A DNA stretch of 64,000 nt from Pseudomonadota bacterium (GTDB lineage: Bacteria > Pseudomonadota > Gammaproteobacteria > Steroidobacterales > Steroidobacteraceae), in assembly GCA_023433705.1 (NCBI GenBank), contig JAEYUC010000051.1, positions 18,968 to 82,967 of the forward strand, read 5' to 3'. The translations under genes and the position numbers were made by a program. The notes under the pieces were generated by a model. That model saw only the letters and a list, made by a program, of their open reading frames with translations. It had not been told where the DNA came from and did not search any database. Shown piece by piece: positions 11,563 to 61,696 of the stretch (position 1 is the first letter of the stretch; every line of letters begins with the position of its first letter).

Positions 11563-12277
11563 CGGGCGCTTTGGCGCCCGTTTTCTTTTCGGCCTTCACC
11601 GGCCGGCCGCGATTTCGCCGTGGAAGGTTTTTGTCCGCCGATGCCGTGACCGTTTCGGCGAAATCCTCCGTCGACGTCGTCGTCCCCCGTTGCAATGAGT
11701 TTCTGATGTGTCGCAGCTCGAGTTCGTCATCACCTTCGGCGACGAACTCCCGATAGCGCTGCCACCGCCGTTGCACGTTGTCCGAGAGCGATGGCGTCAC
11801 CGGATCCACGTCGAGCCAATCAACGACGCTCTCTCCGACGTGTGAGCGATAGCTCGACCAGCGATATTGCCCCGCGGACGCCACCATCCGCGCGCGAACC
11901 GGATTTCGATCGATGTATCGAAGGCACGCGAGGAGATACCGATCCGTTTCGATCGGACTGCTCTTGAACCGCCCGCTCCACAAGGTGCCCGACCGGGTTT
12001 CGATGCGATTCACGCGGCGCGTGTGACGGCCGGCGAGCCGCTTCATGAGCCTTCCGATGTTCTCTGTGTTCAATCCAGGATCGACGATCAGGTGCACGTG
12101 ATTCGTCATCAGGCAGTAACCGTAGATCCTGAGTTCGAGCGACTCGCGAAACTCGGCCAGCGTCTCGAGATAGGCGAGGTAGTCGCCCTCATGGCGAAAG
12201 ACGTCGCGACCGTTGTGTCCGCGTTGATAGAGATGGTGAGGGAATCCCGGAAGCAGGATTCGGCCGATGCGGGGCAT
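11546..12277 (-). CDS. REP-associated tyrosine transposase (RAYT; IS200/IS605-like Y1 HUH transposase family)
   Basis: 243 aa, MPRIGRILLPGFPHHLYQRGHNGRDVF...YGYCLMTNHVHLIVDPG (HUH motif)...RYIDRNPVRA (catalytic Tyr motif). Flanked by inverted REP copies. Confidence 0.85.
   Translation of the reverse strand: MPRIGRILLPGFPHHLYQRGHNGRDVFRHEGDYLAYLETLAEFRESLELRIYGYCLMTNHVHLIVDPGLNTENIGRLMKRLAGRHTRRVNRIETRSGTLWSGRFKSSPIETDRYLLACLRYIDRNPVRARMVASAGQYRWSSYRSHVGESVVDWLDVDPVTPSLSDNVQRRWQRYREFVAEGDDELELRHIRNSLQRGTTTSTEDFAETVTASADKNLPRRNRGRPVKAEKKTGAKAPVIVDK
11562..11590 (+). terminator. rho-independent terminator of the alpha operon
   Basis: ACGGGCGC, loop TTTG, GCGCCCGT, followed by TTTCTTTTC, 30 nt after the rplQ stop. 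Confidence 0.75.
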
Positions 12278-12350
12278 CCTTGCCTCCGTGTCATTGGGCG
12301 GCTAGTTTAGTCGGGAGGGCTCTCGGTGGACGCCGGTTTAACTGGCGTAA

Positions 12351-12374
12351 TCGTTCATAAATAAATCTGTCCCC
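12351..12374 (-). repeat. REP element copy b (inverted relative to copy a)
   Basis: The reverse complement reads GGGGACAGATTTATTTATGAACGA. It lies 74 nt upstream of the RAYT start and 12 nt before mscL. Confidence 0.8.
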
Positions 12375-12385
12375 AAGGGGGTGCC

Positions 12386-12781
12386 ATGGGTCTCGCAACA
12401 GAATTCAAACAATTTGCGATGAGGGGCAACGTGATCGACATGGCCGTCGGTGTCATCATCGGCGCCGCGTTCGGCAAGATCGTCACCTCGGTCGTCGAAG
12501 ACATCATCATGCCGCCGATCGGCAAGCTGATCGGCGGCGTGAACTTCACCGACCTCTCGATAGGCCTTGGCTACGGCCCGGACGGAACGACGGAAGTGCT
12601 GTGGAGATACGGCAACTTCCTGCAGGTTGTCTTTCAGTTCCTCATCGTCGCGTTCGTGTTGTTCATGCTGATCCGCGGGATCAACAAGTTGAAGACGCCG
12701 GACCCGGCCGCGCCACCGCCGCCGCCCTCGCGCCAAGAGGTGTTGCTCGAGGAAATCCGCGACCTTCTCGCGAAGAAGTAG
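12386..12781 (+). CDS. mscL: large-conductance mechanosensitive channel
   Basis: 131 aa, ...[41 protein letters not shown]... Confidence 0.95.
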
Positions 12782-12846
12782 TCGATACGTCGTCGACGCG
12801 AGGCGCGCCCCGCGGTCCCTCGCGCCGGCGTCCCGCCTCTCCGATC

Positions 12847-12925
12847 GGGGACAGATTTATTTATTGACGATAAAGGCTTGCGGCATCAATCCTCCGCAAT
12901 ATCGTCAATAAATATATCTGTCCCC
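12847..12925. repeat. REP doublet (copies c and d in inverted orientation, forming a long hairpin)
   Basis: GGGGACAGATTTATTTATTGACGATAA (12847-12873) faces TATCGTCAATAAATATATCTGTCCCC (12900-12925). The pair fills the gap between the convergent genes mscL and pepQ. Confidence 0.8.
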
Positions 12926-12927
12926 GA

Positions 12928-14268
12928 TCAGAACGCGGGGCGGGTGAGGTTTTCGTGGCCGTCGGGCCGCGCGACGACATCGTCCTCGATGCGTACTCCG
13001 CCGAACGGCTTCAACTGCTCGACGCGCTTCCAATCGATCATTCGACCGAGTGGCTTGGCGCGCACGCCGTCGAGCAGCTGATCGATGAAATAGAACCCGG
13101 GCTCGACGGTCACGACGAAGCCGTCTTCGAGCTTGCGTGTCAACCGCAAGAACGGATGGTTTTGAGGGCGTTCGATGACGCCGCCGCCGGGCTCGCGCTG
13201 CAGTCCACCGACGTCGTGTACCTGCAGGCCGAGCAGGTGCCCGATGCCGTGGGGATAGAACACGCTCGTCAATCCGTTGTCGACCGCCACGTCCGCGCTC
13301 ACGTTGATCACGCCGATCTCGCGCAGGAACTCGCTGATCGCGCGATACGACGCGGCGTGAAAGTCGCGCCAATCGAGACCCACGCGCACTTGCGCGCACA
13401 ACGCGAGCTGCAACGCGTCGAACCGCCGGATGATCTCGGCGAACTCGGCGTCCGCGTAGGAATGCGTGCGCGTGATGTCGCTCGAGTAACCGCCGAACTC
13501 GGCGCCCGCGTCGATGAGCAGCGAATGCTGTTTCGCCGGACGCGTGCGCTGCTGTACCTGGTAGTGAAGGACCGCGCCGCCTTCGTTGAGCGCGACGATC
13601 GGGTTGTACGGCAATTCGCACTCGCGCAGTCCGCATGCCGCCATGAACGCGAGCGCGATCTCGAACTCGCTGCCGCCGGCGCGAAATGCCTTCTCCGCCG
13701 CGACGTGGCCGCGCGCTCCCAGTAAGTTGGCTTCCCGCACGCACGCGATTTCGTACGGCGTCTTCGCCGCGCGGCCATAGTCGAGCTGCGCGACCAAGTG
13801 TTCCGGATTGATGGTGGCCGGACCCCAGGACATGAGCTCCTTGAACGGCGCGCCGATGAATGCCGTCCTCGACAGGTCCTTCGGCAAGGCCGCGCGCGCA
13901 GCCGCGCGATCGGGGCAGCTCACGATGTCGAAGGCATCCGTCCAGTAATCCTTCGGCAGCTCGGGTGACTTGTGCCAGTAGTCAGACGGCTGATGTATCA
14001 GCAGGCGCGGCTTGCGCCCGGGCGTGAAGAAAACGAACGAATCCGGCGCGTCGCCGAGCGGCGCCCAGACCTTGAAAGGCGCCTGCGCGCGAAACGGCAG
14101 GTACTGATCGTCCATGAACAGCGGAGGGGGAGTGCCGGCGTGCAAGAGCAGCGACTCGTAACCCGTCGCGGCGAGCGCCGTGGCCGACCTTTGCTTCACG
14201 ACCTCGATGTGGACGGCGAATGAGCGGGTCCAGTCGGATACGTTCTGTTCAATGGGGAGTGAATTCAT
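12928..14268 (-). CDS. pepQ: Xaa-Pro dipeptidase (prolidase, M24B family)
   Basis: Translation ...VALNEGGAVLHYQ...YSSDITRT...FYPHGIGHLLGLQVHD...VVTVEPGFY... fits the M24B family. I chose the start at internal Met MNSLPIEQ (14268); the track ORF extends to 14313. Confidence 0.85.
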   Translation of the reverse strand: MNSLPIEQNVSDWTRSFAVHIEVVKQRSATALAATGYESLLLHAGTPPPLFMDDQYLPFRAQAPFKVWAPLGDAPDSFVFFTPGRKPRLLIHQPSDYWHKSPELPKDYWTDAFDIVSCPDRAAARAALPKDLSRTAFIGAPFKELMSWGPATINPEHLVAQLDYGRAAKTPYEIACVREANLLGARGHVAAEKAFRAGGSEFEIALAFMAACGLRECELPYNPIVALNEGGAVLHYQVQQRTRPAKQHSLLIDAGAEFGGYSSDITRTHSYADAEFAEIIRRFDALQLALCAQVRVGLDWRDFHAASYRAISEFLREIGVINVSADVAVDNGLTSVFYPHGIGHLLGLQVHDVGGLQREPGGGVIERPQNHPFLRLTRKLEDGFVVTVEPGFYFIDQLLDGVRAKPLGRMIDWKRVEQLKPFGGVRIEDDVVARPDGHENLTRPAF

Positions 14269-14529
14269 GAGCGGGATTCTATGCGCCGTGCGATTTACAG
14301 GGATTTGACGCATTGCAGCAAGCCCTTGGTTTTGTTGGCAAGCGTTTTATCGAGCGACGAAGGTTGATCGCGATTCGATCAACGCCTGACTAATGACTGT
14401 CGCCATCTGCGGACAAATGCGGCGTGTTTCAAATGGTTTGAGGAATCGATAAGATCGCGCTCGCGATGCAAATCGCAACAAACGTTTGTTTGGTCTCACT
14501 TACCACTAGAAAATTTGGGGTACCCCTAC

Positions 14530-14793
14530 ATGAAGATTAACGTCGCTCTCGCCGCCTCGATCGCGGCCCTCGCGCTGATGGCCTGCAGCAAGCAGGAAGC
14601 CGTTTCCACGGAAGCCGCTGCTCCGGTTGCTGAAGAAGCCGCTGCCGCCGCGTCGGAAGCCGCTGCCGCCACGACGGAAGCCGCCGAAGCCACCTCGGAA
14701 GCCGCCGCTGCCGCGACGGAAGCCGCCGCTGCCACGGCTGAAGCCGCTGCTGCTCCGGCCGAGGCCGCCCCGGCGGAGACGCCGGCGCAGTAA
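14530..14793 (+). CDS. Ala/Glu-rich low-complexity lipoprotein (hypothetical)
   Basis: MKINVALAASIAALALMAC carries a lipobox (LMAC). Repeated EAAAA(A/T)-type units follow and the protein ends ...AAPAETPAQ. A strong terminator lies downstream. Confidence 0.6.
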   Translation: MKINVALAASIAALALMACSKQEAVSTEAAAPVAEEAAAAASEAAAATTEAAEATSEAAAAATEAAAATAEAAAAPAEAAPAETPAQ

Positions 14794-14837
14794 TCGATTT
14801 ATCGATTATTGCCTCGAGCCTTCAGGCTCAATGACGG

Positions 14838-14880
14838 CCCGGGCAGTACGTAACGACGTCTGCCCGGGTTTTGTCTTTTC
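14838..14880 (+). terminator. rho-independent terminator
   Basis: CCCGGGCAG (14838-14846) pairs with CTGCCCGGG (14860-14868) and is followed by TTTTGTCTTTTC. Confidence 0.8.
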
Positions 14881-14912
14881 TGGAAGTCGATTTTAGTTAG
14901 AGGGGCTTTCGC

Positions 14913-15443
14913 GTGACGGTCAGTGTTCGAGATGCCCGCGGTGCCGACCGCGATCGTGAGTGGATAGAGCGCGCGTACCGCGACTATCTCGACGATCTGT
15001 CGCCGCTCAACACCGGGGTCTTCAACACGACCTCGCTCGGCGAGATCGGTTACAGCGAATCCGACCAGCTCGCCCGCTGGTTCGGCGATCCCTCCGTCAA
15101 TCCGCTGATCATCATGCGCGGCGCCGACCCTGCCGGCTTCGCCATGGTCGCGCGCGGCGCGATGCCCGGCCGTCCGCCGGTCGATTACCGCATGGCGGAA
15201 TTTTTCGTCGCGCGTGTTTACCGGCGCCGCGGCGTGGGCCGCTCGGCCGTCGAATTGATCCTCAACCGATTCGCGGGGCGCTGGGAGATCACCGAGTGCC
15301 TGCGCAATCCGGTCGCCGTGTCTTTCTGGCGCCGCGTCGTGGCCAACTACACGCAGGGGCGTTACCAGGAACGCGTCACGAACGGCGAGGTGCGCCAGGT
15401 GTTCGACTCCGGCAACTCGCGCGCCGCGAGCGCTACGAAGTGA
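14913..15443 (+). CDS. GNAT-family N-acetyltransferase (putative)
   Basis: 176 aa with a GTG start. VARVYRRRGVGRSAVELIL resembles the acetyl-CoA binding R/QxxGxG/A motif. Confidence 0.6.
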   Translation: MTVSVRDARGADRDREWIERAYRDYLDDLSPLNTGVFNTTSLGEIGYSESDQLARWFGDPSVNPLIIMRGADPAGFAMVARGAMPGRPPVDYRMAEFFVARVYRRRGVGRSAVELILNRFAGRWEITECLRNPVAVSFWRRVVANYTQGRYQERVTNGEVRQVFDSGNSRAASATK

Positions 15444-17167
15444 ATGCGTCGCGCCGGCTGTCCGCAGCTGTCGCGGCCCTGATCATCGCACCCATGGTCA
15501 TGGAAGGTTCCGCCGCCGGTCCGCGTCCCAGCGGATCGCTCGTTCCCACGCGCTCGGAGGTCATCGCCACACACGGCATGGCGGCGACCAGTCATCCGCT
15601 CGTGAGCCAGATCGCGCTGGACGTGCTCAAACGCGGCGGCACCGCGGTCGACGCCGCGATCGCCGCCAACGCGGCCATCGGGTTGATGGAGCCGACGGGC
15701 AATGGCATCGGTGGCGACCTGTTCGCCATCGTCTGGGATGCGAAGTCCGGAAAGCTGCACGGACTCAACGCGAGCGGCCGCTCGCCGCAATCGCTGACGT
15801 TCGAGAAATTGCAGGCGGAGCTGAAGCGGCTCGATCGCAAGACGATTCCGCCGACGGGGCCGTTGCCGGTCTCGGTGCCCGGCACCGTCGACGGGTGGTT
15901 CGAGTTGCACGGCAAGTTCGGCAAGCTGCCGATGAAGGAACTGCTGCAGCCCGCGATCTCCTATGCGCGCGATGGATTTCCCGTCACCGAGGTCATCGCG
16001 GCGGGCTGGGCGACGAATGTCCGCACCCTCGCGAAGTTTCCGAACTTCGCGGAAACCTTCATGCCGAACGGCCGGGCGCCGGCCAAGGGCGAGATCTTCC
16101 GTAATCCGCTGCTCGCGGACACGTTGTCGCGCATCGCCGAGGGCGGGCGCGACGCGTTCTACAAGGGCGACATCGCGCAGCGCATCGGGAATTACATGCG
16201 CGCGAACGGCGGTTACCTCACGGCCGCGGACCTGGCCGCGCACCGCTCCGAGTGGGTGGAGCCGGTGTCCACTAACTACCGTGGATACGACGTGTGGGAG
16301 CTGCCGCCCAACACGCAGGGCGTCGCGGCGCTGCAGATGCTCAACATTCTCGAGGGATACGACATCAGGTCGATGGGTTTCGGCAGCGCCGACTACCTGC
16401 ACGCGTTCGTCGAGGCCAAGAAACTGGCGTTCGAAGACCGCGCGCGTTATTACGCGGATCCGGGGTTCGCGAAGATTCCGCTGAAGACGCTGCTGTCGAA
16501 GGACTACGCGGCGAAGCGCCGCGGACTCATCGACTCGAAGAAGGCCGCGCGCGAGTATCCCGTCGACACCAAGGCTCTCGACCAGAGCGACACCATCTAC
16601 ATGACCGTGGCCGACGCCGCGGGCAACATGGTGTCGCTGATCCAGAGCAACTACCGCGGCCTGGGTTCGGGCATGACGCCCGACGGCTGCGGTTTCATCC
16701 TGCAGGATCGCGGCGAGCTGTTCTCGATGACGCCGGGCCACGCGAATGTGTACGCGCCCGGAAAGCGGCCCTTCCACACCATCATTCCCGCGTTCGTCAC
16801 GAAGGACGGCAAACCCTGGCTGTCGTTCGGCGTCATGGGCGGCGGCATGCAGCCGCAGGGTCACGCGCAAATCGTCGTGAACCTCGTCGACTTCGGCATG
16901 AACTTCCAGGAAGCCGGCGATGCGCCGCGCGTGCGTCACGAGGGCTCGAGCGAACCCACGGACGAGAGGATGCGCGACGGCGGCGAGGTACTGCTCGAGC
17001 AAGGTTTCCCGCTCGATGTCGTGAAATCACTGCAGGCCCGTGGTCACAAGGTGACCGTCAGGAACGATGGCGGGTTTGGCGGTTACCAGGCCATCCATCG
17101 AAATGCGGAAGGGGTGTATTTCGGGGCGTCCGAGTCGCGCAAGGACGGCGCGGCCCAGGGTTACTGA
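15440..17167 (+). CDS. ggt: gamma-glutamyltransferase
   Basis: The GTG at 15440 overlaps the GNAT stop (GTGA). The N-terminus, read by hand as MNASRRLSAAVAALIIAPMVMEGSAAG, looks like a signal peptide. It continues ...ATHGMAATSHPLVSQIALDVLKRGGTAVDAAIA...DTIYMTVADAAGNMVSLIQSNY...FGVMGG. The upstream 160 aa of track ORF 14960..17167 overlap the GNAT gene out of frame. Confidence 0.9.
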   Translation: MNASRRLSAAVAALIIAPMVMEGSAAGPRPSGSLVPTRSEVIATHGMAATSHPLVSQIALDVLKRGGTAVDAAIAANAAIGLMEPTGNGIGGDLFAIVWDAKSGKLHGLNASGRSPQSLTFEKLQAELKRLDRKTIPPTGPLPVSVPGTVDGWFELHGKFGKLPMKELLQPAISYARDGFPVTEVIAAGWATNVRTLAKFPNFAETFMPNGRAPAKGEIFRNPLLADTLSRIAEGGRDAFYKGDIAQRIGNYMRANGGYLTAADLAAHRSEWVEPVSTNYRGYDVWELPPNTQGVAALQMLNILEGYDIRSMGFGSADYLHAFVEAKKLAFEDRARYYADPGFAKIPLKTLLSKDYAAKRRGLIDSKKAAREYPVDTKALDQSDTIYMTVADAAGNMVSLIQSNYRGLGSGMTPDGCGFILQDRGELFSMTPGHANVYAPGKRPFHTIIPAFVTKDGKPWLSFGVMGGGMQPQGHAQIVVNLVDFGMNFQEAGDAPRVRHEGSSEPTDERMRDGGEVLLEQGFPLDVVKSLQARGHKVTVRNDGGFGGYQAIHRNAEGVYFGASESRKDGAAQGY

Positions 17168-53281: not shown

Positions 53282-55594
53282 GTGCCGATTTCCGATTCCG
53301 ATCTGGACTTGCCGTTTGCCCGCCGTCGCATTGCCGTAGCCATCAGCCTCGCGCTCGCCGCGGGCGCCGCGCACGCGCAGACCGCCACGGATACGTCGAC
53401 CACTGGAGAGACCAAGACCCTCTCGAAGATTTCCGTCGAGGCCACCGAGGCCGAGGAAACGCCGAAGGTCGATCGTGTGTCGTCGCCCAAGTTCACGCAG
53501 GATCTCATCGACATCCCGCAGACGATCACGGTCGTCAGCAGGGAAGTGCTCACTCAGCAAGGCGCGACCACGCTCTCGCAGGCGCTGCGCAACACGCCCG
53601 GTGTGACGTTCCTGCTGGGCGAGAACGGCAACACCGCGACCGGCGATTCCGTCTTCATGCGCGGCTTCGACACACAAGGCTCCATCTTCATCGACGGCAT
53701 CCGCGACCTGGGCGCGGTGTCGCGCGACGTCTTCAACACGGAGCAGGTGGAAATCGCCAAGGGTCCGGCGGGTCCGGATTACGGCCGCAGCGCCGCGTCC
53801 GGATACATCAACCTCGCCAGCAAGGTTCCGACCGCGGACAGCTTCAACTCGGGCGCCGTGAGTTACGGCACCGCGGAGAATGCGCGCATCACCGGCGACG
53901 TGAATCATCGCTTCGAAGGAACCGGTGCCGCATTCCGCCTCAACGTGATGGCGCAGGACGGCGAAGTCGACGGCCGCGACTTCATCGAGCGCAAGGGCTG
54001 GGCCGTGGCGCCGTCGCTCGCGTTCGGCCTGGAAGGCGACACGCGTGCTTATTTCTATCTACTGCACACGCAGCAGGACAACATTCCGGACGGTGGCGTG
54101 CCGACGATCGGCCTCGAGGGTTTCTACAACGCGGCGTTCGATACCGGTGGCGCACACGCGGGCCTGGTCCCCGATCGCGTGGATCGGAACAACTACTACG
54201 GTTTCACGAGCGACTTCGAGGACATCGAGGCGACGATGTTCACGGCTCGCTTCGAGCACGATTTCAGCGAGAACGTCACGCTGCGCAATACCTCGCGCTA
54301 CGGCAAGCTGAACCAGTTCTACGTGCTCACCGGCGTCAACGCGCTCAACGTGACGGCCGCCGATCCGGACGACTGGACCGTGGCGCGCACGCGGCAGTCC
54401 AGGTTCCAGGACAACACGCTGCTCACCAACCAGACGAACGTGACCGCCAACCTGCAGACCGGAAGCGTGGGCCACGCCATCACGGGCGGTGTCGAGTTCA
54501 TCGACGAAGAGCAGTACACGCCCCTGTATCTCGCCGCGAGCCTTGGCAGTCCCATACCGCCGGCAAACGTGTACAACCCCAACCGCAACGACGTGCTGCC
54601 GGGCTACGCCCCGACGCGCGACGGCCGCTACACGCGTGGCGAGACGCAGACCGTCGGCGCCTATCTGTTCGATACGCTGAGCTTCGGCGAGAAATGGCAG
54701 CTCACGGCCGGCTTCCGCGTGGATGACTTCGAGACCAACGTGGACGGCGTGGTGTTCTCGACGGAGGCCTCGCACCCGACACTGCCCGTGAATACGCTCG
54801 TGCCGCAGAACTTCCAGATCGACGACACGTTGTTCTCATACAAGGTGGGCCTGCTGTACAAGCCCGTGCCGAACGGCAGCATCTATCTGTCGCACGCAAC
54901 GTCGCAGCAGCCGCCGGGCGGAGCCAACTTCACGTTCTCGGCGAACGCGAACAACCAGAACAACCCGGCGCTGGATCCCACCGAGGGCACGAACCTCGAA
55001 CTCGGCGCCAAGTGGGAGTTCCGCGACGGCGCGCTGGCGGTGACCGGCGCCCTCTATGACAGCACCAACAAGGACGAGATCGCGCAGGATCCGGTGGATC
55101 CGACGCAGTTCGTGCAGATCGGCGAGCGCAACGTGAAGGGCATCGAGCTCGGCATCGTCGGCAAGCTCACCGATGCCTGGGAGCTGAGCGCGGGCGTTTC
55201 GAAGATGGACACCGAGGTCAAGCGCGGACTCGCCAACCAGGCCGGCCTGCCGATCACCTGGTCGCCCGAGTTCACGTTCACGAGCTGGACTACCTACCAC
55301 CTGCCGTTCGGGCTTTCGATCGGCGGCGGGGTCCGCTACGTCGACAGCGTGATCCGCCCGGTGAGCGCGAACAACGTGCCGCCGCCGCCCAACCAGACCA
55401 ACATGCGCACCGCGCCCGACTACTGGGTGGTGGACATGATGGCGTCCTATGCCATCAACGACAACGTGACGCTGCAGTTGAACGGCTACAACCTCACGGA
55501 CGAGCTGTACGTGGCCACGCTCAACAACAGCGGCGCCCGCTACTCGCCCGGCGCGCCGCGGTCGGCGCTGCTCACGGTGAATTTCAGCTTCTGA
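53282..55594 (+). CDS. TonB-dependent (catecholate-type, Fiu-like) siderophore receptor
   Basis: 770 aa with a GTG start and a signal peptide. The plug reads ...[32 protein letters not shown]...; the protein ends in ...TVNFSF. A PiuC/YbiX-like gene follows. Confidence 0.88.
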
Positions 55595-55619
55595 GCCCGA
55601 CTGTGCGAGCATCCGGCGC

Positions 55620-56300
55620 ATGCTGATTCGCGTGCCGAACCTGTTGAGCGCCGAGCAGGTGGCGGAGTGCCGCCGCCTGCTCGACGCCGCCGAATGGACG
55701 GACGGCAAGTCGACCGTCGGCGAGCAGGGCGCGCTGGTGAAGCGCAATCGGCAACTTCCCGAACTGTCGCCGGTTTCCCGGCAGCTCGGCGAGCTCATCC
55801 TCACCGCGCTCGCGCGCAATCCGTTGTTCTTTTCCGCCGCGCTGCCGCTCAAGACCGTGCCGCCGCTGTTCAACCGCTACGAGGGCGGCGAGCACTACGG
55901 CATGCACATCGACGGCGCCGTGCGCGCGGTGCCGGGCAGCACGCACTTCATCCGCACGGACCTGTCCTCGACGCTGTTCCTGACGGATCCGGCCGACTAC
56001 GACGGCGGCGAGCTCATCGTCCAGGACACCTACGGCGAGCACTCGGTCAAACTACCCGCCGGCGACCTGATCCTGTACAACTCCGGCAGCCTGCATCGCG
56101 TGAATCCCGTGACCCGCGGCGCCCGCATCTGCTCGTTTTTCTGGACGCAGAGCATGATTCCCGACGATCGCCACCGCGAGCACCTCTTCCGGCTCGACCA
56201 GACCATCCAGAAGCTGCGCGGCAGGATCGGCGAGACCGACGAAACCGTCGCGCTGGCCGGGCACTATCACAACCTGCTCAGGATGTGGTCGGAGATCTGA
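55620..56300 (+). CDS. piuC: Fe(II)/2-oxoglutarate-dependent oxygenase, PiuC/YbiX family
   Basis: 226 aa, [34 protein letters not shown]...[16 protein letters not shown]... Confidence 0.8.
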
Positions 56301-59300
56301 TACTCCACTATCCGTTAATCCGGGATCGGTTCCGCTTAATCCAAGCGTCTATTCTTCCTGCAAGTTAATTGGTTCCCTCTTCAGGAACGGTACCAATAAT
56401 GAATATTTCCGTGACGAACTACTCAGCCACGAGTGTTCGCGTACCCTGGCTGTCTATCTAGGCTAATCAGAAGCGTATTGTCAGATGCAATCGCTAGCAT
56501 CGACAACCAACACGTCAGATTCTGTTCGGAGAGGCCAATGGCGGAGATCGAAGCGCTTCCGTTGCACCTTCATACGCTGGATAGCTTGAGCGACGATCTG
56601 CTGGCTGGGCGGAAGGTGCTGTTCGCGGACTCTGCAGAAACTGGGGAGATCTTCGTCCTTAGTGAGAACGAGAGAAGGGTCTTTTCTTGGTATAGCCAGA
56701 ACCGCGGCAAGTGGGCAAAGAATTGCCTGAAGGAAGATGTGGAAGCCATTGCGGCGACTCTTGGCAACGCTCTGCCAAAAACGCGCGATCGTCAACTTCG
56801 AGACGGACCAAAGCGCGTTCGCCATTTTCATCTCTTGAAGATCCGAGCATTTCGGTTCGGGGGCCTTCATCTATTTGGCAGTGCAATCGCTGACAAGCCG
56901 CCAGTATTTGAGTTTGCATGCTCAAGTCCAATGACTCTTGTGCAGGGTAAGAACGGCTCAGGGAAGACTTCGCTTCTTAACGCCATTACTTGGTGTCTTA
57001 CAGGCCACGTATTTCGGCCCTCAAGCGAGCCAGAACCGGGAGCTGGCCCAATTGAGGTTTCTAATAGCGAATCTGAGGGCCAGACATGGGAACTTGCCGG
57101 TGTTACCCCCCTTCCGCCGCGGGATGCTCTCGCGGGCTTTCCGAGCCGTGGAGTTCCGCTTGATACATGGGTCGAACTGATACTCGGCACTGAGGACGGC
57201 GCCGAGTACGCAGTGAGGCGTGAACTAACGCGAACAGCCAGGGGAAATGTTCAGGAGCAGATTACCGGGCTATCGGAACTCGGCTTGGATCCAATAAGCC
57301 TTGAGCTCGGGACCAAAATGCCCGGGCTGCTTCCATATATTCGGCTTGGAACTCGGCCATCGGAACTCGGAAAAGCTATTGCTCAACTAACTGGGTTAGC
57401 GCCCCTTCGCGATCTATCTAAGCATGCGTCTAAAGCATATGAGAAATTAACAGCAGAACTACCAAAGGAACGCCGCGCCGATATTGCTGTCGTTGAATCG
57501 ACCTACTTAGCTGACCAGAAAAAGCTGGATGACCTGGTAAAGGTTCATCCCTTGATTGCAGAGAAACCAATACTGGTTCCCAAGCCTTCCGATGAGAATG
57601 CAGCATCCCAACTAGATGCGTTGCAGGGCCAACTCGACGGGCTTTGTGCACAACTGCTTGAAGACGTTGAGGGCGTACTGACGACGGATTTCGATCCGTC
57701 GGTCGCAACCGATAGGGCCGCTCTCGCCAATGACTTGCCATTGTGTAGAGCCGCGTGCAGACCAAGCAACCTACTAACTTTGGCCTCGGTCGCGAGAATC
57801 TCGGGTCTCAAGGGACTTGAGGAAAATCAACTTGGAGATGCGGAGAAAGTCATCGCCGAGTTGGAACTGCAGGCAAGTGAGCTGCTCGAACTTGCAAAAG
57901 AACCAAGGGCCGCCTCCCGCACTCGTCTTTACGCATCGGTCGGCTCATGGATGAGAAACGAAAAATTCACCGATTCACGCCATTGCCCGGTCTGTATTGG
58001 TGAGCTTGGTAAAGCAAAGGACCCGATCACAAATGTAGAAATCGAAAAACTCCTTGAAGAACACCGAAATGGCGGCCGGTCGCACCTTTCATTGACTACA
58101 GATCAATGGGTGAATTCGGCGCGTCAACGCCTTAAGGACGCGCTTCCAACGGCGCTGGCAGCTGAGCTGACATCTGCGAAGTTGGTGAATCCAATTTCCC
58201 AAATTTCCGATGAGATGGTTGATGATCTGTTTCGACTGGAATGCTTCTCTGGGCCGCTCAAGAGTCTAAAAGCCAAACTAAAAGATCAGGCGCGAGCACT
58301 TGCCGGTAAGCTGCCATCATTCGAAGTCGATGGAGCAGCAATTCCGCATATCGCGCGCCTCTCGAGTGCTCTCGCGCAGATGATTGAGAAAGTTCGAGCC
58401 GCCATCGCCGCTGCTCGGTGGCGTCGAAAGAACGAGAGAGAGTGCCGAATTTTCTACTTCGGCCTAGTTGGACGAGATAAGCGGCAAGCCACTGAACAGC
58501 AACAGGAGGAAATCGAAAGCCCTACTGAAGGGACATTGCTCGACATTCTCACGGCGCTCGATCGAATCGTTCAATCTGCTGGGCCGGCAGCGGACGCTGC
58601 ATCACTTGTGCGTGCGCTTTCAAAATCACTCAATTCTCGGGCTGCACTCGAATCAAGAATAGAGACATATATCGAGGCTTCGAAAGCCGTGAAGACGTTA
58701 GGAGGACTAGGAACACTAGTTGATCGGCAAATCGAGGGGTTGCAGACTCACCTGCATGAGAAAACTGAACAACTCCGTAACGCTATTTATCAGTCCGCCT
58801 ATTCAAATTCGGCATCGCCCAAACTCAATCGCACTCGGGTGTCAAACGACGGATCTCTCAGCCTAGAAGTCGAGCGGAACGGAACTTGCGCGCCAGCACA
58901 AATCGTTGGAAATGCGTCTGATCTTCGCGCAACTCTCCTCGCGTTCCTATTCTCGTTTTGGTTGCACGTATCGAAGACACGAGGCGGACTTAGTATCTTC
59001 CTGCTTGATGATCCGCAAGAGTTGTTTGATCCAGATAATCGTCGTCGGGTCGCTAACGGAATTCCGCAACTCGTAAAGGAAGGGGCGCGACCTATTGTTG
59101 CCTGCAACGATGACCGATTTTCAGAGAAACTTGGGAGTGCAGACGGATGCGATAGACGTGAAATCAAACCAGCAGGGAAGGTCTGTCCAGTAGCAAGGGT
59201 TTTGCCCCATGAGGTTTCCATAGACAGAAAACGTCACGCCTTCGAATCGCCGGTGAACGAGGAAGATCATTCAATTGCACAAGACTATGTTGGTTCGCTT

Positions 59301-60547
59301 CGAGAGTGGCTGGAAGGACAATTCGCAGACTTCTTTTTGCCATCGGCAAAAATATTCTCGAGTGAACCGACTCTAGGAACATTGATCGATACATTTCGAA
59401 GTCGGGTGATGTCCGGATCGGAGGCGTTTGCCGGGCCGGCCGCCTTGGCGCTTGCAAGATGTTCAGACCTTCTTGCGTCGTCATCGACGTATGAGCTCTT
59501 GAATAGGGCGCACCATCGCGATCGGGCAACAATTACTGCCGGAGAAGTTCGGGCGGTCGACGGTCAGCTTAGGCATATACAGAATCTAGTTAGCCGAGCA
59601 CACGAAGAGCTGGAACTGTGGCTAAGTCGAGACCTAAACGCGCGTGGATCGGGACCTGCGCTCAGACAGACCTTGTCAGGAGAATTCAAGTCTAGGCCAT
59701 TTATTGTTCCCATAGTTCGCGACCTAGCAGCGTTTACCACAAGGACAATTGAGCACGACCCGCAGCTTGAAGAGGTTCCATTAACCGATGGTTGGTTCCG
59801 TGGAACAGGCCTCTTCCAGCTGGGTAGCAACAATTTCGGCTTCAGCGCCCCGAAACACAGCATTGCAATCGTTGAGCTGGAACCGAAGGAAATCCTTGAT
59901 AGTCGCCTTGTCATCGCGTTGGTTGATGGGAAGGTGTATGCACGCCGGCACATCCAAGATCAAAAGAATCCAAAGATGATCGCGCTAATCTCAGAGGCTG
60001 AGAATCCGCTGGAACGCGCGCCATCCATAGTTATACCTGCGCAGCAAGCACAGCTGCATAAGGTGGTTGGCATCCTCTTTGAAGATCGTGCGCCAGCCGT
60101 GCGAATAAAGGGCGATGCAGCTCAAATTCAACATTCGTCATTGTTGGATTCTGTGGAGGTTGCCTTCAAGGTTAGACAAGACAGCGCCCTTCCGTTGGCA
60201 ATTGAGGGACAGTTGGTCATTGGAGGTCGGCGCGTCGAGCCGCGCGAGATTTCGAACGCAGTAGGAAAGGTTGTTGCGGTGGCAACTACCGATGGCCAAC
60301 ATGCGCTAAAGCGCCTTGGCGACGAAGTCCCCGGTCTGGCGGGTGTGCACTACTTCGATTCAATTGGTGGGAAAGGTAATTCCCTGATTGCGCGAATTGC
60401 ACAATCGCCGCGGGTGGAGGAAGAGCGCCTAGCTATTCCCAAAATCGAATCGCTACGCATTATCCTCGGTGTGCTTTACGTTACAAGCTCCTGATATGCT
60501 TGACTCCCGAGTGCTGGGGCGCGGAAAACGGGTGTCAAAAGGCGCAG
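56301..60547. other. low-GC genomic island carrying a single giant ORF (no integrase, tRNA or IS visible)
   Basis: Hand counts of sampled 60-nt lines give 29/60 (line 57421) and 31/60 (line 58681) GC inside. Flanking lines give 45/60 (line 55501) and 41/60 (line 61021). Codon usage also shifts abruptly toward A/T-ending codons. Confidence 0.8.
56538..60494 (+). CDS. 1318-aa SMC/Rad50-like ABC ATPase with a CxxC hook, PrrC/RloC-like motifs and two C-terminal LexA/S24-like modules (hypothetical; candidate defence protein)
   Basis: The ATG at 56538 follows GGAGAGG. Walker A is GKNGSGKTS (56946-56972). A helical insert of roughly 600 aa contains CPVC (57984-57995). Walker B and downstream read SIFLLDDPQELFDPDN...PIVACNDDRF. 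LREWLE...LLNRAHH follows. The C-terminal modules are ...LVIALVDGKVYARRH... and ...VRQDSALPLAIEGQLVIGG...GQHALKRLG... Confidence 0.85.
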   Translation: MAEIEALPLHLHTLDSLSDDLLAGRKVLFADSAETGEIFVLSENERRVFSWYSQNRGKWAKNCLKEDVEAIAATLGNALPKTRDRQLRDGPKRVRHFHLLKIRAFRFGGLHLFGSAIADKPPVFEFACSSPMTLVQGKNGSGKTSLLNAITWCLTGHVFRPSSEPEPGAGPIEVSNSESEGQTWELAGVTPLPPRDALAGFPSRGVPLDTWVELILGTEDGAEYAVRRELTRTARGNVQEQITGLSELGLDPISLELGTKMPGLLPYIRLGTRPSELGKAIAQLTGLAPLRDLSKHASKAYEKLTAELPKERRADIAVVESTYLADQKKLDDLVKVHPLIAEKPILVPKPSDENAASQLDALQGQLDGLCAQLLEDVEGVLTTDFDPSVATDRAALANDLPLCRAACRPSNLLTLASVARISGLKGLEENQLGDAEKVIAELELQASELLELAKEPRAASRTRLYASVGSWMRNEKFTDSRHCPVCIGELGKAKDPITNVEIEKLLEEHRNGGRSHLSLTTDQWVNSARQRLKDALPTALAAELTSAKLVNPISQISDEMVDDLFRLECFSGPLKSLKAKLKDQARALAGKLPSFEVDGAAIPHIARLSSALAQMIEKVRAAIAAARWRRKNERECRIFYFGLVGRDKRQATEQQQEEIESPTEGTLLDILTALDRIVQSAGPAADAASLVRALSKSLNSRAALESRIETYIEASKAVKTLGGLGTLVDRQIEGLQTHLHEKTEQLRNAIYQSAYSNSASPKLNRTRVSNDGSLSLEVERNGTCAPAQIVGNASDLRATLLAFLFSFWLHVSKTRGGLSIFLLDDPQELFDPDNRRRVANGIPQLVKEGARPIVACNDDRFSEKLGSADGCDRREIKPAGKVCPVARVLPHEVSIDRKRHAFESPVNEEDHSIAQDYVGSLREWLEGQFADFFLPSAKIFSSEPTLGTLIDTFRSRVMSGSEAFAGPAALALARCSDLLASSSTYELLNRAHHRDRATITAGEVRAVDGQLRHIQNLVSRAHEELELWLSRDLNARGSGPALRQTLSGEFKSRPFIVPIVRDLAAFTTRTIEHDPQLEEVPLTDGWFRGTGLFQLGSNNFGFSAPKHSIAIVELEPKEILDSRLVIALVDGKVYARRHIQDQKNPKMIALISEAENPLERAPSIVIPAQQAQLHKVVGILFEDRAPAVRIKGDAAQIQHSSLLDSVEVAFKVRQDSALPLAIEGQLVIGGRRVEPREISNAVGKVVAVATTDGQHALKRLGDEVPGLAGVHYFDSIGGKGNSLIARIAQSPRVEEERLAIPKIESLRIILGVLYVTSS

Positions 60548-61696
60548 CTAGTCGTTCGAGCTTGAAGTCCCAGGCCGCACCGCCGGCAGCACGTGGCGAG
60601 TCAGGATATCGAACGGCAGGTCGGACGCCCGCGAGTTGTAGTTCGACGCGGTGAACGTCACGACGAGATCGAGCGCGGGAATCACGAAGATGTAGTTCCC
60701 GCCGTTGCCGGACGTGAAGAAACTCTCGACCGTGACTTCGGTGTGATGCGGGAACGAACGCTTCCACCACAGGAACCCATAACCATCGGAGCCCAGCCTG
60801 TTCACGGGCAACGCAGATTCGGCCACCCACGCGGCCGGGACCACCTGTGTTCCATTCCACTCGCCACCGGCCAGGTAAAGTTGCCCGAGCTTCGCGGCAT
60901 CGCGGGGCTTGAGCCGCAGGCCGCCGCCGCCGGTGGCGCGCCCGTCGGGCGACCGGCGCCAGATCGATTCGCGGATGCCGAGCGGATCGAATAGATAGGC
61001 CTGGGCGTAGGCGTCGAGCTCCATCCCGGACCGCAGCGATACGATGTGCCCGAGCAGGACGACGCCGCCGGTGCAGTACTGCGGCACGGAACCGGGCGTG
61101 AAAGGCGCAGGAAGGTCGAGCACGAAGCGGATCCAGTCCCTCGAGTCGTACATCCGCTCTTCCTGCCCCGGCGAGTTCGCCACCCAGTCATCACACGCGA
61201 GCCCGGAGCTCATGTTGAGCAGGTGGCGGATCGTGATCTCGCGTTTGCGGTCGCTCATGTTCTCGTGCCCGTCAAAGTTCGGGATGTGCCGGGACGCCGT
61301 GTCGTCCACGCCCAGCAGGCCCTGATCGATGGCGATCCCGACCAGCGCCGACGTGAAGCTCTTGCCCGTCGAACGCAGGTCGTGCAGCGAGTCGCGGCCG
61401 AAGCCGTTGAAATAGCCCTCCGCGACCAGGCGTCCGTGGCGCGCCACGACCATGGAATCCACGCGCCGATACTCGCCATCGCGGATACGGTTGAGGGCGG
61501 CGGACAGGGCGGCCGCATCGATGTCCTCGGCGACCGCGGTCGAGACGGTCCAGCCGTCACCGGTGTCCTCGGGCGTGATCGAAACCAGCGGCGGCAGGCC
61601 TGGATTCACATCGCGCGGCGGGTCGCTGCCGTCGTCTCCGAAGCGGCAAGCGGTGAGCAGCAGGGACAGGACGAGGACGAAAACCTTGTGACGCAT
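60548..61696 (-). CDS. serine hydrolase (beta-lactamase/PBP4-like family) lipoprotein
   Basis: Start at the internal Met (61696), MRHKVFVLVLSLLLTAC (lipobox). The SxxK motif is LRSTGKSF. Confidence 0.75.
   Translation of the reverse strand: MRHKVFVLVLSLLLTACRFGDDGSDPPRDVNPGLPPLVSITPEDTGDGWTVSTAVAEDIDAAALSAALNRIRDGEYRRVDSMVVARHGRLVAEGYFNGFGRDSLHDLRSTGKSFTSALVGIAIDQGLLGVDDTASRHIPNFDGHENMSDRKREITIRHLLNMSSGLACDDWVANSPGQEERMYDSRDWIRFVLDLPAPFTPGSVPQYCTGGVVLLGHIVSLRSGMELDAYAQAYLFDPLGIRESIWRRSPDGRATGGGGLRLKPRDAAKLGQLYLAGGEWNGTQVVPAAWVAESALPVNRLGSDGYGFLWWKRSFPHHTEVTVESFFTSGNGGNYIFVIPALDLVVTFTASNYNSRASDLPFDILTRHVLPAVRPGTSSSND

Follow-up and report, generated by a model that had tools for sequence, protein, structure and literature searches.

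A single-gene island of low GC content in a Steroidobacteraceae genome encodes a Rad50-like ATPase with LexA/S24-like domains, probably a defence protein

A stretch of 64,000 nucleotides from a Pseudomonadota bacterium of the family Steroidobacteraceae (assembly GCA_023433705.1, contig JAEYUC010000051.1, positions 18,968 to 82,967 of the forward strand; hereafter the window, whose positions serve as coordinates) raises the question of how one large gene of deviating composition came to lie between piuC and a convergent gene for a serine hydrolase, and of what its product might do there. The gene is carried by an island of 4,273 bp (56302-60574) that is a recent horizontal insertion without mobility genes of its own. 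It encodes a protein of 1,318 amino acids (aa) in which a Rad50-type ATPase head is followed by an all-helical domain and by two domains resembling the self-cleaving domain of LexA (S24 family). Judged from its sequence and its genomic company, this is probably a single-protein phage or plasmid defence gene. The island and its flanks comprise the following features (L007 and L009 are the corresponding loci of two related genomes; L001 is a separate assembly of the same locus).

56302-60574, no strand: inserted low-GC island, delimited by the GC step, the empty sites in relatives, the ends of blastn matches and the same junctions in L001
55620-56300, plus strand: native left flank, a piuC-like Fe(II)/2-oxoglutarate oxygenase gene (Pfam 2OG-FeII_Oxy_3 and PKHD_C; protein 99% identical in L007)
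56302-56537, plus strand: non-coding leader of the island, read from the sequence, with a GGAGAGG ribosome-binding site ahead of the ATG
56538-60494, plus strand: coding sequence (CDS) of the 1,318-aa protein, the only gene of the island (open reading frame list, translation, protein P0001, homologues)
60495-60574, no strand: 3' tail of the island, from the sequence and the comparison with L007 and L009
60548-61696, minus strand: right flank, a beta-lactamase-family serine hydrolase gene (Pfam Beta-lactamase), native except for its last 27 bases

The composition of the island departs sharply from that of its surroundings. Its GC content is 0.526 vs 0.647 (standard deviation 0.009, minimum 0.621) in segments of 4,272 bp elsewhere in the window, which places it about 13 standard deviations under the mean. 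Along a 300-bp profile GC is 0.65-0.70 up to 56150, 0.49-0.57 at about 56300-60550 and 0.65-0.71 thereafter. The GC content of third codon positions (GC3) changes likewise, from 0.886 in the TonB-dependent receptor gene and 0.912 in piuC to 0.498 in the island gene, and back to 0.856 in the beta-lactamase-family gene and 0.886 in the gene for an extracytoplasmic function (ECF) sigma factor. The left edge is the base directly after the piuC stop codon (56301/56302). The right edge is 60574: homology to relatives is recovered at 60575-60581, so that the last eight codons and the stop codon of the hydrolase reading frame (60548-60574) are island DNA. The only long open reading frame (ORF) of the island runs from 56433 to 60494 on the plus strand. 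Its true start is the ATG at 56538, with GGAGAGG seven bases upstream, in agreement with an independent gene call of 1,318 aa and with the N-termini of homologues.

The original prediction, made from the letters of the sequence, had placed a single-gene, horizontally acquired insert here, and most of it stands. The step in GC is as sharp as proposed, although the hand-counted values (a fall from 68-75% to 48-52%) were slightly too extreme at both ends. The start at the piuC stop codon, the switch in codon usage (0.498 vs 0.856-0.912 in four neighbouring genes) and the presence of one gene only are all borne out by computation, whereas the end moves from 60547 to 60574. The predicted lack of an integrase, a transposase or a tRNA also holds: the ORF list has no integrase, transposase or recombinase within the island, the tRNA scan was empty across the whole window, and no Rfam family reached its threshold in the window. 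As had been noted, flanking direct repeats are lacking; neither direct nor inverted repeats occur around the island above chance. Because it has neither a recombinase gene nor a tRNA or att site, and because target-site duplications and terminal inverted repeats are lacking as well, the island does not fall among the elements mobilised by integrases or transposases. The simplest guess is that it entered by illegitimate or homology-facilitated recombination of incoming DNA from a plasmid or an integrative and conjugative element (ICE).

Horizontal acquisition is established by comparison with relatives. Relatives of the piuC product were scanned with one genome per species, and 80 loci were fetched; the closest belong to uncultured Proteobacteria and Steroidobacteraceae genomes. 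The order TonB-dependent receptor, piuC, convergent beta-lactamase-family gene and ECF sigma factor is kept in six of them (L007, L009, L010, L012, L013 and L015). All six show an empty site: the two convergent stop codons are about 10-15 bp apart in L007 and L009, where the DNA was read directly, and at most a few tens of bp apart in the other four (tblastn). In these two loci, the ones compared at the DNA level, the flanking DNA is 86-95% identical overall. The left flank matches L007 with 94.7% identity over 10 kb up to base 56300, where the blastn match stops, and the right flank is picked up at 60575 (L009) and 60581 (L007) with 86-91% identity; the 4,273 bp therefore took the place of about 10-12 bp of ancestral spacer. 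The hydrolase is 88-90% identical to the proteins of L007 and L009 over residues 1-374. In the relatives it ends in ...LPAIR followed by the stop codon; in the window this ancestral stop codon is gone and the frame reads into island DNA, ending ...LPAVRPGTSSSND and adding the eight residues PGTSSSND and a stop (60548-60574, minus strand). A large protein of the 1,318-aa type is encoded in none of the 80 piuC loci. Composition step and empty sites in close relatives together define the segment as a genomic island. Since low-GC DNA downstream of piuC was found in none of 16 related loci, this site is not a recurrent insertion hotspot. Farther afield, the TonB-dependent receptor and piuC (53282-56300) are syntenic from Steroidobacteraceae to Variovorax, receptor matches having been read for L007-L024. 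PiuC is 64-99% identical across the 80 loci (L007-L086), and the gene downstream of it differs between lineages.

A sharp change of composition at both ends is also what an assembly chimera of reads from two organisms would produce. That origin is scarcely credible here. A separate Logan assembly of run SRR13243552 (L001, 9,050 bp) contains the island and both junctions with 100% identity, and the identical protein (P0001) was called on independent contigs; it is indexed in one block whose longest contigs are of 5-10 kb and in two whose longest contigs are of 50-200 kb, and three contigs carrying it were read. As both flanks are syntenic with relatives, a chimera would moreover require that reads were joined exactly at two points lying 10 bp from each other in the host genome. 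A gene that is ancestral at this place, unusual in composition by chance and lost from the sampled relatives, would accord with a segment devoid of mobility genes, target-site duplication and terminal repeats. We regard this too as very improbable, because the six relatives with the piuC/beta-lactamase pair all show the same tight junction (two of them read at the DNA level), the 3' end of the hydrolase gene is intact and shorter in L007 and L009, and the 16 related loci have no low-GC DNA after piuC. A GC3 of 0.50 vs about 0.89 cannot be a native equilibrium, and the nearest homologue is just 47% identical and comes from unrelated metagenome contigs.

The non-coding parts of the island are short. 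The leader presumably has its own promoter, and between 56313 and 56400 it holds three copies of TTAAT(C/T) (CGTTAATCC, GCTTAATCC and AGTTAATTGG) and a GGTTCC...GGAAC inverted repeat, which may be operator or promoter elements. A sigma-70 consensus scan of the plus strand of the leader gave no match, and the leader is not conserved in the DNA upstream of the closest homologue. No convincing terminator was found in the 3' tail, whose RNA fold is no better than that of shuffled sequences (z = +1.05).

The protein can be divided into the following parts, all on the plus strand. Residues described as invariant refer to an alignment of 174 full-length family members, complemented by one of 60 members.

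56538-56825: N-terminal domain, aa 1-96, fold unassigned, set off by conservation (W51, Y52 and W59 nearly invariant in both the 60 and the 174 members)
56826-57437: N-lobe of the ATP-binding cassette (ABC) head, aa 97-300, with Walker A GKNGSGKT at 56946-56969 (aa 137-144; K143 invariant)
57438-58784: long insert between the lobes, aa about 300-750, interpreted as a coiled coil from the LmuB alignment, with a CPVC motif (C483/C486) at 57984-57995
58785-59177: C-lobe of the ABC head, aa 750-880 (match to the C-terminal lobe of Rad50 in the PDB at residues 800-859)
59193-59645: all-helical domain, aa 886-1036, a candidate HEPN-like RNase
59301-59303, 59313-59315 and 59511-59516: R922, E926 and H992-H993 (R922 and H993 in 174/174, E926 in 173/174)
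59721-59738: DLAAFT motif, aa 1062-1067, with invariant A1065, after a disordered linker (conservation and hhalign register)
59790-60077: S24-like domain 1, aa 1085-1180, catalytically degenerate (G1101 at the Ser and R1136 at the Lys position)
60066-60071: V1177-G1178, with invariant G1178 (VVG), 38 residues ahead of S1216
60117-60491: S24-like domain 2, aa 1194-1318, in which the Ser/Lys pair is intact: S1216 (60183-60185, in QDSALP) and K1258 (60309-60311, in LKRLG)

The ATPase head is of the Rad50 type. It is matched by Pfam AAA_23 (2e-11) and more weakly by SMC_N, and both of its halves give PDB profile matches to Rad50 heads (3e-9 and 1e-3). The C-lobe carries a signature-like NASDLRA at 58911-58931 (S794 in 173/174 members) and a Walker B with D-loop, IFLLDDPQELFD, at 58995-59030, which includes LLDDPQELFD (D824 and D831 in 174/174). 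Some 650 residues lie between Walker A (aa 137-144) and Walker B (aa 820-825). This interval probably folds as a coiled coil, as its residue composition and the LmuB alignment suggest, and within it the sequence HCPVCI was verified; CPVC is also the motif of the Rad50 zinc hook. The LmuB profile of PADLOC (PDLC03859) aligns with aa 293-842 at 1.5e-14, that is with the coiled-coil region and the C-lobe. An ABC head split by a putative coiled coil with a CxxC hook is the arrangement of RloC. The N-terminal domain (aa 1-96) has no match in Pfam, NCBIfam or PADLOC.

The helical domain is predicted with high confidence (AlphaFold2 (AF2) model, predicted local distance difference test (pLDDT) score 92), and it is tentatively taken as the toxic output of the protein, probably a metal-independent HEPN-like RNase that would shut down translation. 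This suggestion comes from the model and from analogy. Its absolutely or almost absolutely conserved polar residues form the pattern R922-x3-E926...[S/A]991-H992-H993, in which Ser or Ala precedes the His. The RloC and PrrC nuclease domains contain a triad Arg-X3-Glu-X36-52-His, often with Ser before the His, and mutation of any of these residues abolishes the RloC nuclease (PMC2610378). They have been assigned to the HEPN domains as divergent members, joined to SbcC/Rad50-like ABC ATPases, a known defence design; the HEPN superfamily has a four-helix up-down core with an Rx4-6H motif (PMC3710099). A Foldseek search with the helical model gave no match of significance (E > 1 throughout); HEPN domains or HEPN toxins nevertheless make up about 16 of the top 50, including the matches with the highest template modelling (TM) scores, 0.50-0.57 (e.g. 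1o3u, 3o10, 1wty, 7ae6, 6m6u, 8yuf and 1jog). In one of twelve genomic contexts compared below, a Variovorax locus (L087:11949-12542), the homologue is followed, at a distance of 19 bp and in the same orientation, by a gene for a LigT/2',5'-RNA-ligase-like 2H phosphoesterase. Such a neighbour would fit an RNase output, because enzymes of this kind act on RNA ends with 2',3'-cyclic phosphates.

The relationship of the C-terminal part to LexA is clearest in its fold. An AF2 model of aa 881-1318 (pLDDT 86) has as its 14 best Foldseek matches in the PDB only C-terminal domains of LexA or lambda cI, with probabilities of 0.94-1.0; the best local fits have root mean square deviations of 2.9-3.7 Å over 94-114 columns and TM-scores of 0.65-0.68. 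The model thus has a LexA fold. Of 25 members, 10 give a match of domain 1 to Pfam Peptidase_S24 (best 3e-5). For one relative (P0323) the match passes the Pfam threshold, with 27.8 vs 23.3 bits. By hhalign, the register of domain 1 corresponds to residues 97-168 of LexA (E 1.5e-3 to 1.4e-4, the latter against LexA/UmuD sequences). In this register Gly1101 replaces the nucleophilic Ser and Arg1136 the general-base Lys, so that domain 1 is a pseudo-protease. In domain 2, S1216, P1219 and K1258 are present in 174/174 members. S1216 and K1258 are 42 residues apart and align with the Ser and Lys positions of S24, and the Ser-Lys dyad is therefore present at the level of sequence. The motifs of divergent members (GDSAxP...GRIVAV...LKRLG) are almost canonical, and Peptidase_S24 is the commonest Pfam match of the domain 2 fragment (5/26 members, best E 0.0074). 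Alignment with S24 sequences by hhalign places Ser on Ser (E 0.0035). Domain 2 is probably an active S24 domain.

Searches of PDB chains with the sequence of the C-terminal 438 aa and with that of domain 2 returned no LexA; the S24 relationship is visible by fold comparison and by Pfam only. Comparison of domains 1 and 2 with each other by hhalign gave E 0.32, so that an internal duplication is not apparent from the sequence. The S24 reference for hhalign was an alignment of retrieved UmuD/RulA-like proteins, a narrow family, used alone or together with three further sequences; against a single LexA sequence the match was weak. The reference proteins themselves (L003:1278-1715 and P0121-P0176) read DSSLEGFG...YRVRL, seemingly with an Arg at the position of the catalytic Lys of LexA, which could be an effect of the alignment or the mark of an atypical S24 subgroup.

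In LexA, UmuD and lambda cI the scissile site lies 35-38 residues before the Ser, and Ser and Lys are 37-43 residues apart; the cleavage site of LexA is VAAG. Two invariant positions of the family have a comparable spacing. A1065 of the DLAAFT motif is about 36 residues ahead of the pseudo-nucleophile position of domain 1, and G1178 precedes S1216 by 38. Either A1065 (LAAF) or G1178 (VVG) might mark a cut site, a conjecture drawn from spacing.

This architecture defines a family of its own. A word-indexed search retrieved 199 relatives, the best 120 of which are nearly all of 1,277-1,338 aa, with 92-100% query coverage and 33-47% identity. Over the family, full-length homologues have 1,277-1,387 aa and are 24-47% identical to the window protein. 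Where the sources name them, it is just as 'ATP-binding protein' or 'hypothetical'. When 1.84 billion representatives of clusters at 50% identity were scanned with a profile of the C-terminal 438 residues, 402 proteins matched at E <= 1e-3, 158 of them at E <= 1e-30. All full-length matches have about 1,280-1,390 aa and carry the module at the C-terminus. Three shorter matches (P0313, P0315 and P0323) were considered as alternative architectures and rejected as truncated or frameshifted copies; among the 1.84 billion representatives the module occurred in this family and its fragments only. Since full-length members share both length and module position and the shorter ones are fragments, the architecture is rigid. 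Of the positions checked, K143, C483, C486, D824, D831, R922, H993, A1065, R1137, G1178, S1216, P1219 and K1258 are invariant in 174/174 members, while E926 and S794 are each present in 173/174.

The family behaves as a mobile accessory gene. It is present on chromosomes, and copies were found on 25 PLSDB plasmids (11 conjugative, 8 mobilizable and 6 non-mobilizable), in 0 of 50,697 phage genomes and on no IMG/VR contig. In 9 of 11 loci measured the gene has a GC content of 0.54-0.60, in hosts of 0.50-0.67; two plasmid copies have 0.62 and 0.66. In other high-GC hosts the gene stands out by 6-13 points, as it does in the window.

The surroundings of the gene were examined in 12 cases, 10 from genomes or metagenomes and two from plasmids. 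The gene is always solitary, with no conserved neighbouring gene across the 12 contexts. At least 5 of the 10 genome or metagenome neighbourhoods, and one of the two plasmid regions, contain known genes of defence systems or mobile elements at a distance of no more than 10 kb. The original prediction had proposed that the neighbourhoods of homologues be inspected for defence islands, and at least half of the 12 have defence or mobile-element genes nearby. The following neighbours were found.

TerB_N/TerB_C, a BrxD-like ATPase and a helicase, as a trio
brxA, brxB and brxC of BREX, with transposases
L090:3372-6417 and 14922-16888, an island densely set with defence genes: SIR2_2 with a HerA-like ATPase upstream, RloB and an AAA_15/AAA_21 ATPase downstream
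L090 in addition: Fic, a BrnA antitoxin and IS21 fragments
an EcoRII-type restriction-modification pair
a resolvase and Fic
Methylorubrum plasmid pCMU01: IS630 and IS3 bracketing the gene, which adjoins a Shedu nuclease

On the Croceicoccus plasmid p2 (L094:1456-7585 and 11889-16105) the homologue follows a block with ParB, a zincin-like protein (ArdC-type), DUF3768 and DUF736, of a kind characteristic of conjugative elements, and is convergent with a complete sbcCD pair. The Prosthecomicrobium copy (L088:6102-7761) is likewise preceded by a DUF3768 block. In Aquipseudomonas alcaligenes (L003:3127-7761), umuDC and the homologue are separated by two ORFs without a Pfam match (324 and 1,117 aa), all of them on the same strand; these two ORFs may be further uncharacterised cargo of an island.

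A role in defence is favoured by the match to the LmuB profile, by the defence and mobile neighbours, by carriage on conjugative plasmids and by a composition that the gene keeps as its own across hosts. On these grounds the suggestion of the original prediction that the island carries a defence gene is plausible, though not proven. The protein could instead be a factor of mobile elements for repair, plasmid maintenance or competition between elements, for example an SOS-tuned Rad50/SbcC paralogue that processes ends during conjugation. This would be in keeping with the best PDB matches, which are to Rad50, with the Gene Ontology term 'double-strand break repair' attached by one source, and with the Croceicoccus copy, which stands after the conjugative block and beside sbcCD, the DUF3768 block of Prosthecomicrobium being similar. 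About half of the neighbourhoods have no known defence genes, among them that of the window itself, where iron uptake, hydrolase and ECF sigma factor genes occur and no other defence gene; this both favours the alternative and tells against a defence function. Nevertheless, none of the 12 neighbourhoods has a conserved partner of the Mre11/SbcD type, and the sbcCD genes of Croceicoccus are a separate, complete pair. Defence is also the better fit for a gene that is patchily distributed, missing from close relatives and clustered with BREX, SIR2-HerA, Shedu and restriction-modification genes. We therefore consider a non-immune role unlikely and retain defence as the likely function.

SMC/Rad50-like ATPases recur in bacterial immunity, as in RloC, Lamassu and Wadjet, and the protein can be placed, as a variant, among such sensor-effector defence proteins. 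Its mode of working would be most like that of RloC and its profile is most like LmuB, but by sequence it belongs to neither. With RloC it shares a single chain with an ABC head split by a coiled coil (inferred here) with a CxxC hook, a helical domain after the head with an invariant Arg-x3-Glu...His and a Ser or Ala before the His, and a stand-alone gene of patchy distribution. The arrangement of head, coiled coil and zinc hook in RloC has been described (PMC2610378). The window protein differs in being some 500 residues longer than the 804-aa RloC of G. kaustophilus in having an extra N-terminal domain of 96 aa and the two C-terminal S24-like domains, and in a Glu-to-His spacing outside the range published for the triad. 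Similarity to the RloC nuclease domain was not detectable in sequence beyond the motif pattern, and no PrrC profile was among the top PADLOC matches. With LmuB, the best PADLOC profile, it would share the logic of an SMC-type sensor that controls a toxic effector; the profile covers part of the protein, however, and the candidate effector and regulator are here fused in the same chain. Genes for the partners LmuA and LmuC were found in none of the 12 neighbourhoods, and the protein is thus not a member of Lamassu.

LexA, lambda cI and UmuD resemble the C-terminal part in fold (Foldseek probability 1.0 and TM-score 0.65-0.68 over about 100 residues) and in the Ser...Lys pair of domain 2, which is spaced by 42 residues and set in motifs of the GDSAxP and LKRLG types. 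Here, however, there are two tandem domains, the first catalytically dead, there is neither a helix-turn-helix DNA-binding domain nor a conserved Ala-Gly site, and the module is joined to an ATPase of 1,000 residues and not to a repressor or a polymerase accessory factor. Common to Rad50, SbcC and the protein are Walker A, signature, Walker B and D-loop motifs as well as the CPVC hook, whereas the present family has additional N- and C-terminal domains, a mobile and patchy distribution and no conserved Mre11/SbcD partner beside the gene. NCBIfam scores are far below those of true members (sbcc, 27 bits vs a cut-off of 478.5; rad50, 11.5 vs 453.75). No full-length model of the family exists in PADLOC 2.0, and neither Pfam, NCBIfam nor PADLOC 2.0 describes the architecture. 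About 540 residues, made up by the N-terminal and helical domains together with the S24-like pair, have no significant match above threshold in Pfam, NCBIfam or PADLOC. Searches of the literature outside subscription journals turned up neither an account of an SMC/Rad50-like ATPase combined with S24 domains nor a mention of two RefSeq accessions.

Taken together, these features may be best explained by an RloC- or Lamassu-like sensor combined with a HEPN-like RNase as output and a LexA-type self-cleaving latch, an explanation drawn from sequence, models and analogy in which we have moderate confidence. Head, coiled coil and hook would form an ATP-dependent dimer that recognises DNA ends, breaks, replication intermediates or other abnormal or foreign DNA, by analogy with related ATPases. 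The S24 pair would act as a latch opened by self-cleavage, triggered either by RecA filaments on single-stranded DNA (ssDNA), as in LexA, lambda cI and UmuD, or by the ATPase cycle. The helical domain would thereby be freed as a toxic RNase in the manner of RloC, and the cell would respond to the detection of DNA damage or invading DNA by abortive infection or by arresting its growth. As the residues of the ATPase, R922/E926/H993 and S1216/K1258 are all conserved absolutely, or in E926 and S794 nearly so, all three activities probably matter. LexA-type cleavage is classically triggered by RecA-ssDNA filaments. RloC for its part is reported to be activated by DNA breaks (PMC3874168), and for these two reasons a RecA-responsive protein of the RloC kind would be a coherent design.

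Several observations count against this combination, besides the neighbourhoods without defence genes. As to the RNase, the evidence for HEPN consists of Foldseek matches with E-values above 1 and of the motif; the spacing from Glu to His is 65-66 residues, outside the 36-52 of RloC and PrrC, and the canonical Rx4-6H motif is absent from the helical domain, where N989-x2-H992-H993 comes nearest. Pfam AAA_13, the RloC/PrrC family, did not match the whole protein at E <= 1 nor the C-terminal part at E <= 10. As to the latch, the Foldseek query spans both S24 domains and the aligned one is not reported. The window's own domain 1 scores 14.5 bits over aa 1102-1168, below the PF00717 gathering score of 23.3, and its own domain 2 has no Pfam Peptidase_S24 match; the link of domain 2 to S24 by sequence is weak (E 0.0035-0.0074). 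Finally, no conserved Ala-Gly or Cys-Gly cleavage site exists in the family.

Some of these points would suit an exchange of roles, in which S24 domain 2 would be an effector protease acting in trans on a host or phage protein after firing of the Rad50-like sensor, and the helical domain an adaptor that regulates or binds nucleic acid. Both S1216 and K1258 are invariant, likewise P1219 and R1259 nearby, there is no conserved Ala-Gly site for self-cleavage, and the evidence for HEPN is weak. Protease effectors occur in other defence systems, including some LmuA variants of Lamassu. Against this, conservation of R922, E926 and H993 is as strict as that of the protease dyad and would be difficult to account for in an adaptor, and the characterised LexA-type S24 proteins that we know of cut only themselves or their own dimer partner. 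An effector protease thus seems improbable to us, and a self-cleaving latch is preferred. More tentatively, the family might represent a new class, an immune sensor that reads a DNA-damage signal and in which self-cleavage by the pseudo-protease/protease pair, driven by RecA or by the ATPase, unleashes the fused HEPN-like RNase; we consider this doubtful. If true, self-cleavage in the style of LexA would here be an immune trigger instead of a transcriptional switch.

For this genome, the island represents a clean single-gene insertion without recognisable mobility machinery. More generally, how SMC/Rad50-like sensors relay the detection of foreign DNA to an effector is still being worked out. 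The family is a natural fusion of such a sensor with a putative effector and a LexA-type cleavable module, with key residues that are invariant or nearly so (E926 in 173/174) across 174 members. If the S24 module does cleave itself, this would be, to our knowledge, the first case of the chemistry of the SOS switch inside a defence protein, and the cleavage band would provide a simple read-out of the activation of an SMC-type sensor. Defining the family would also improve the annotation of several hundred entries now named 'ATP-binding protein'.

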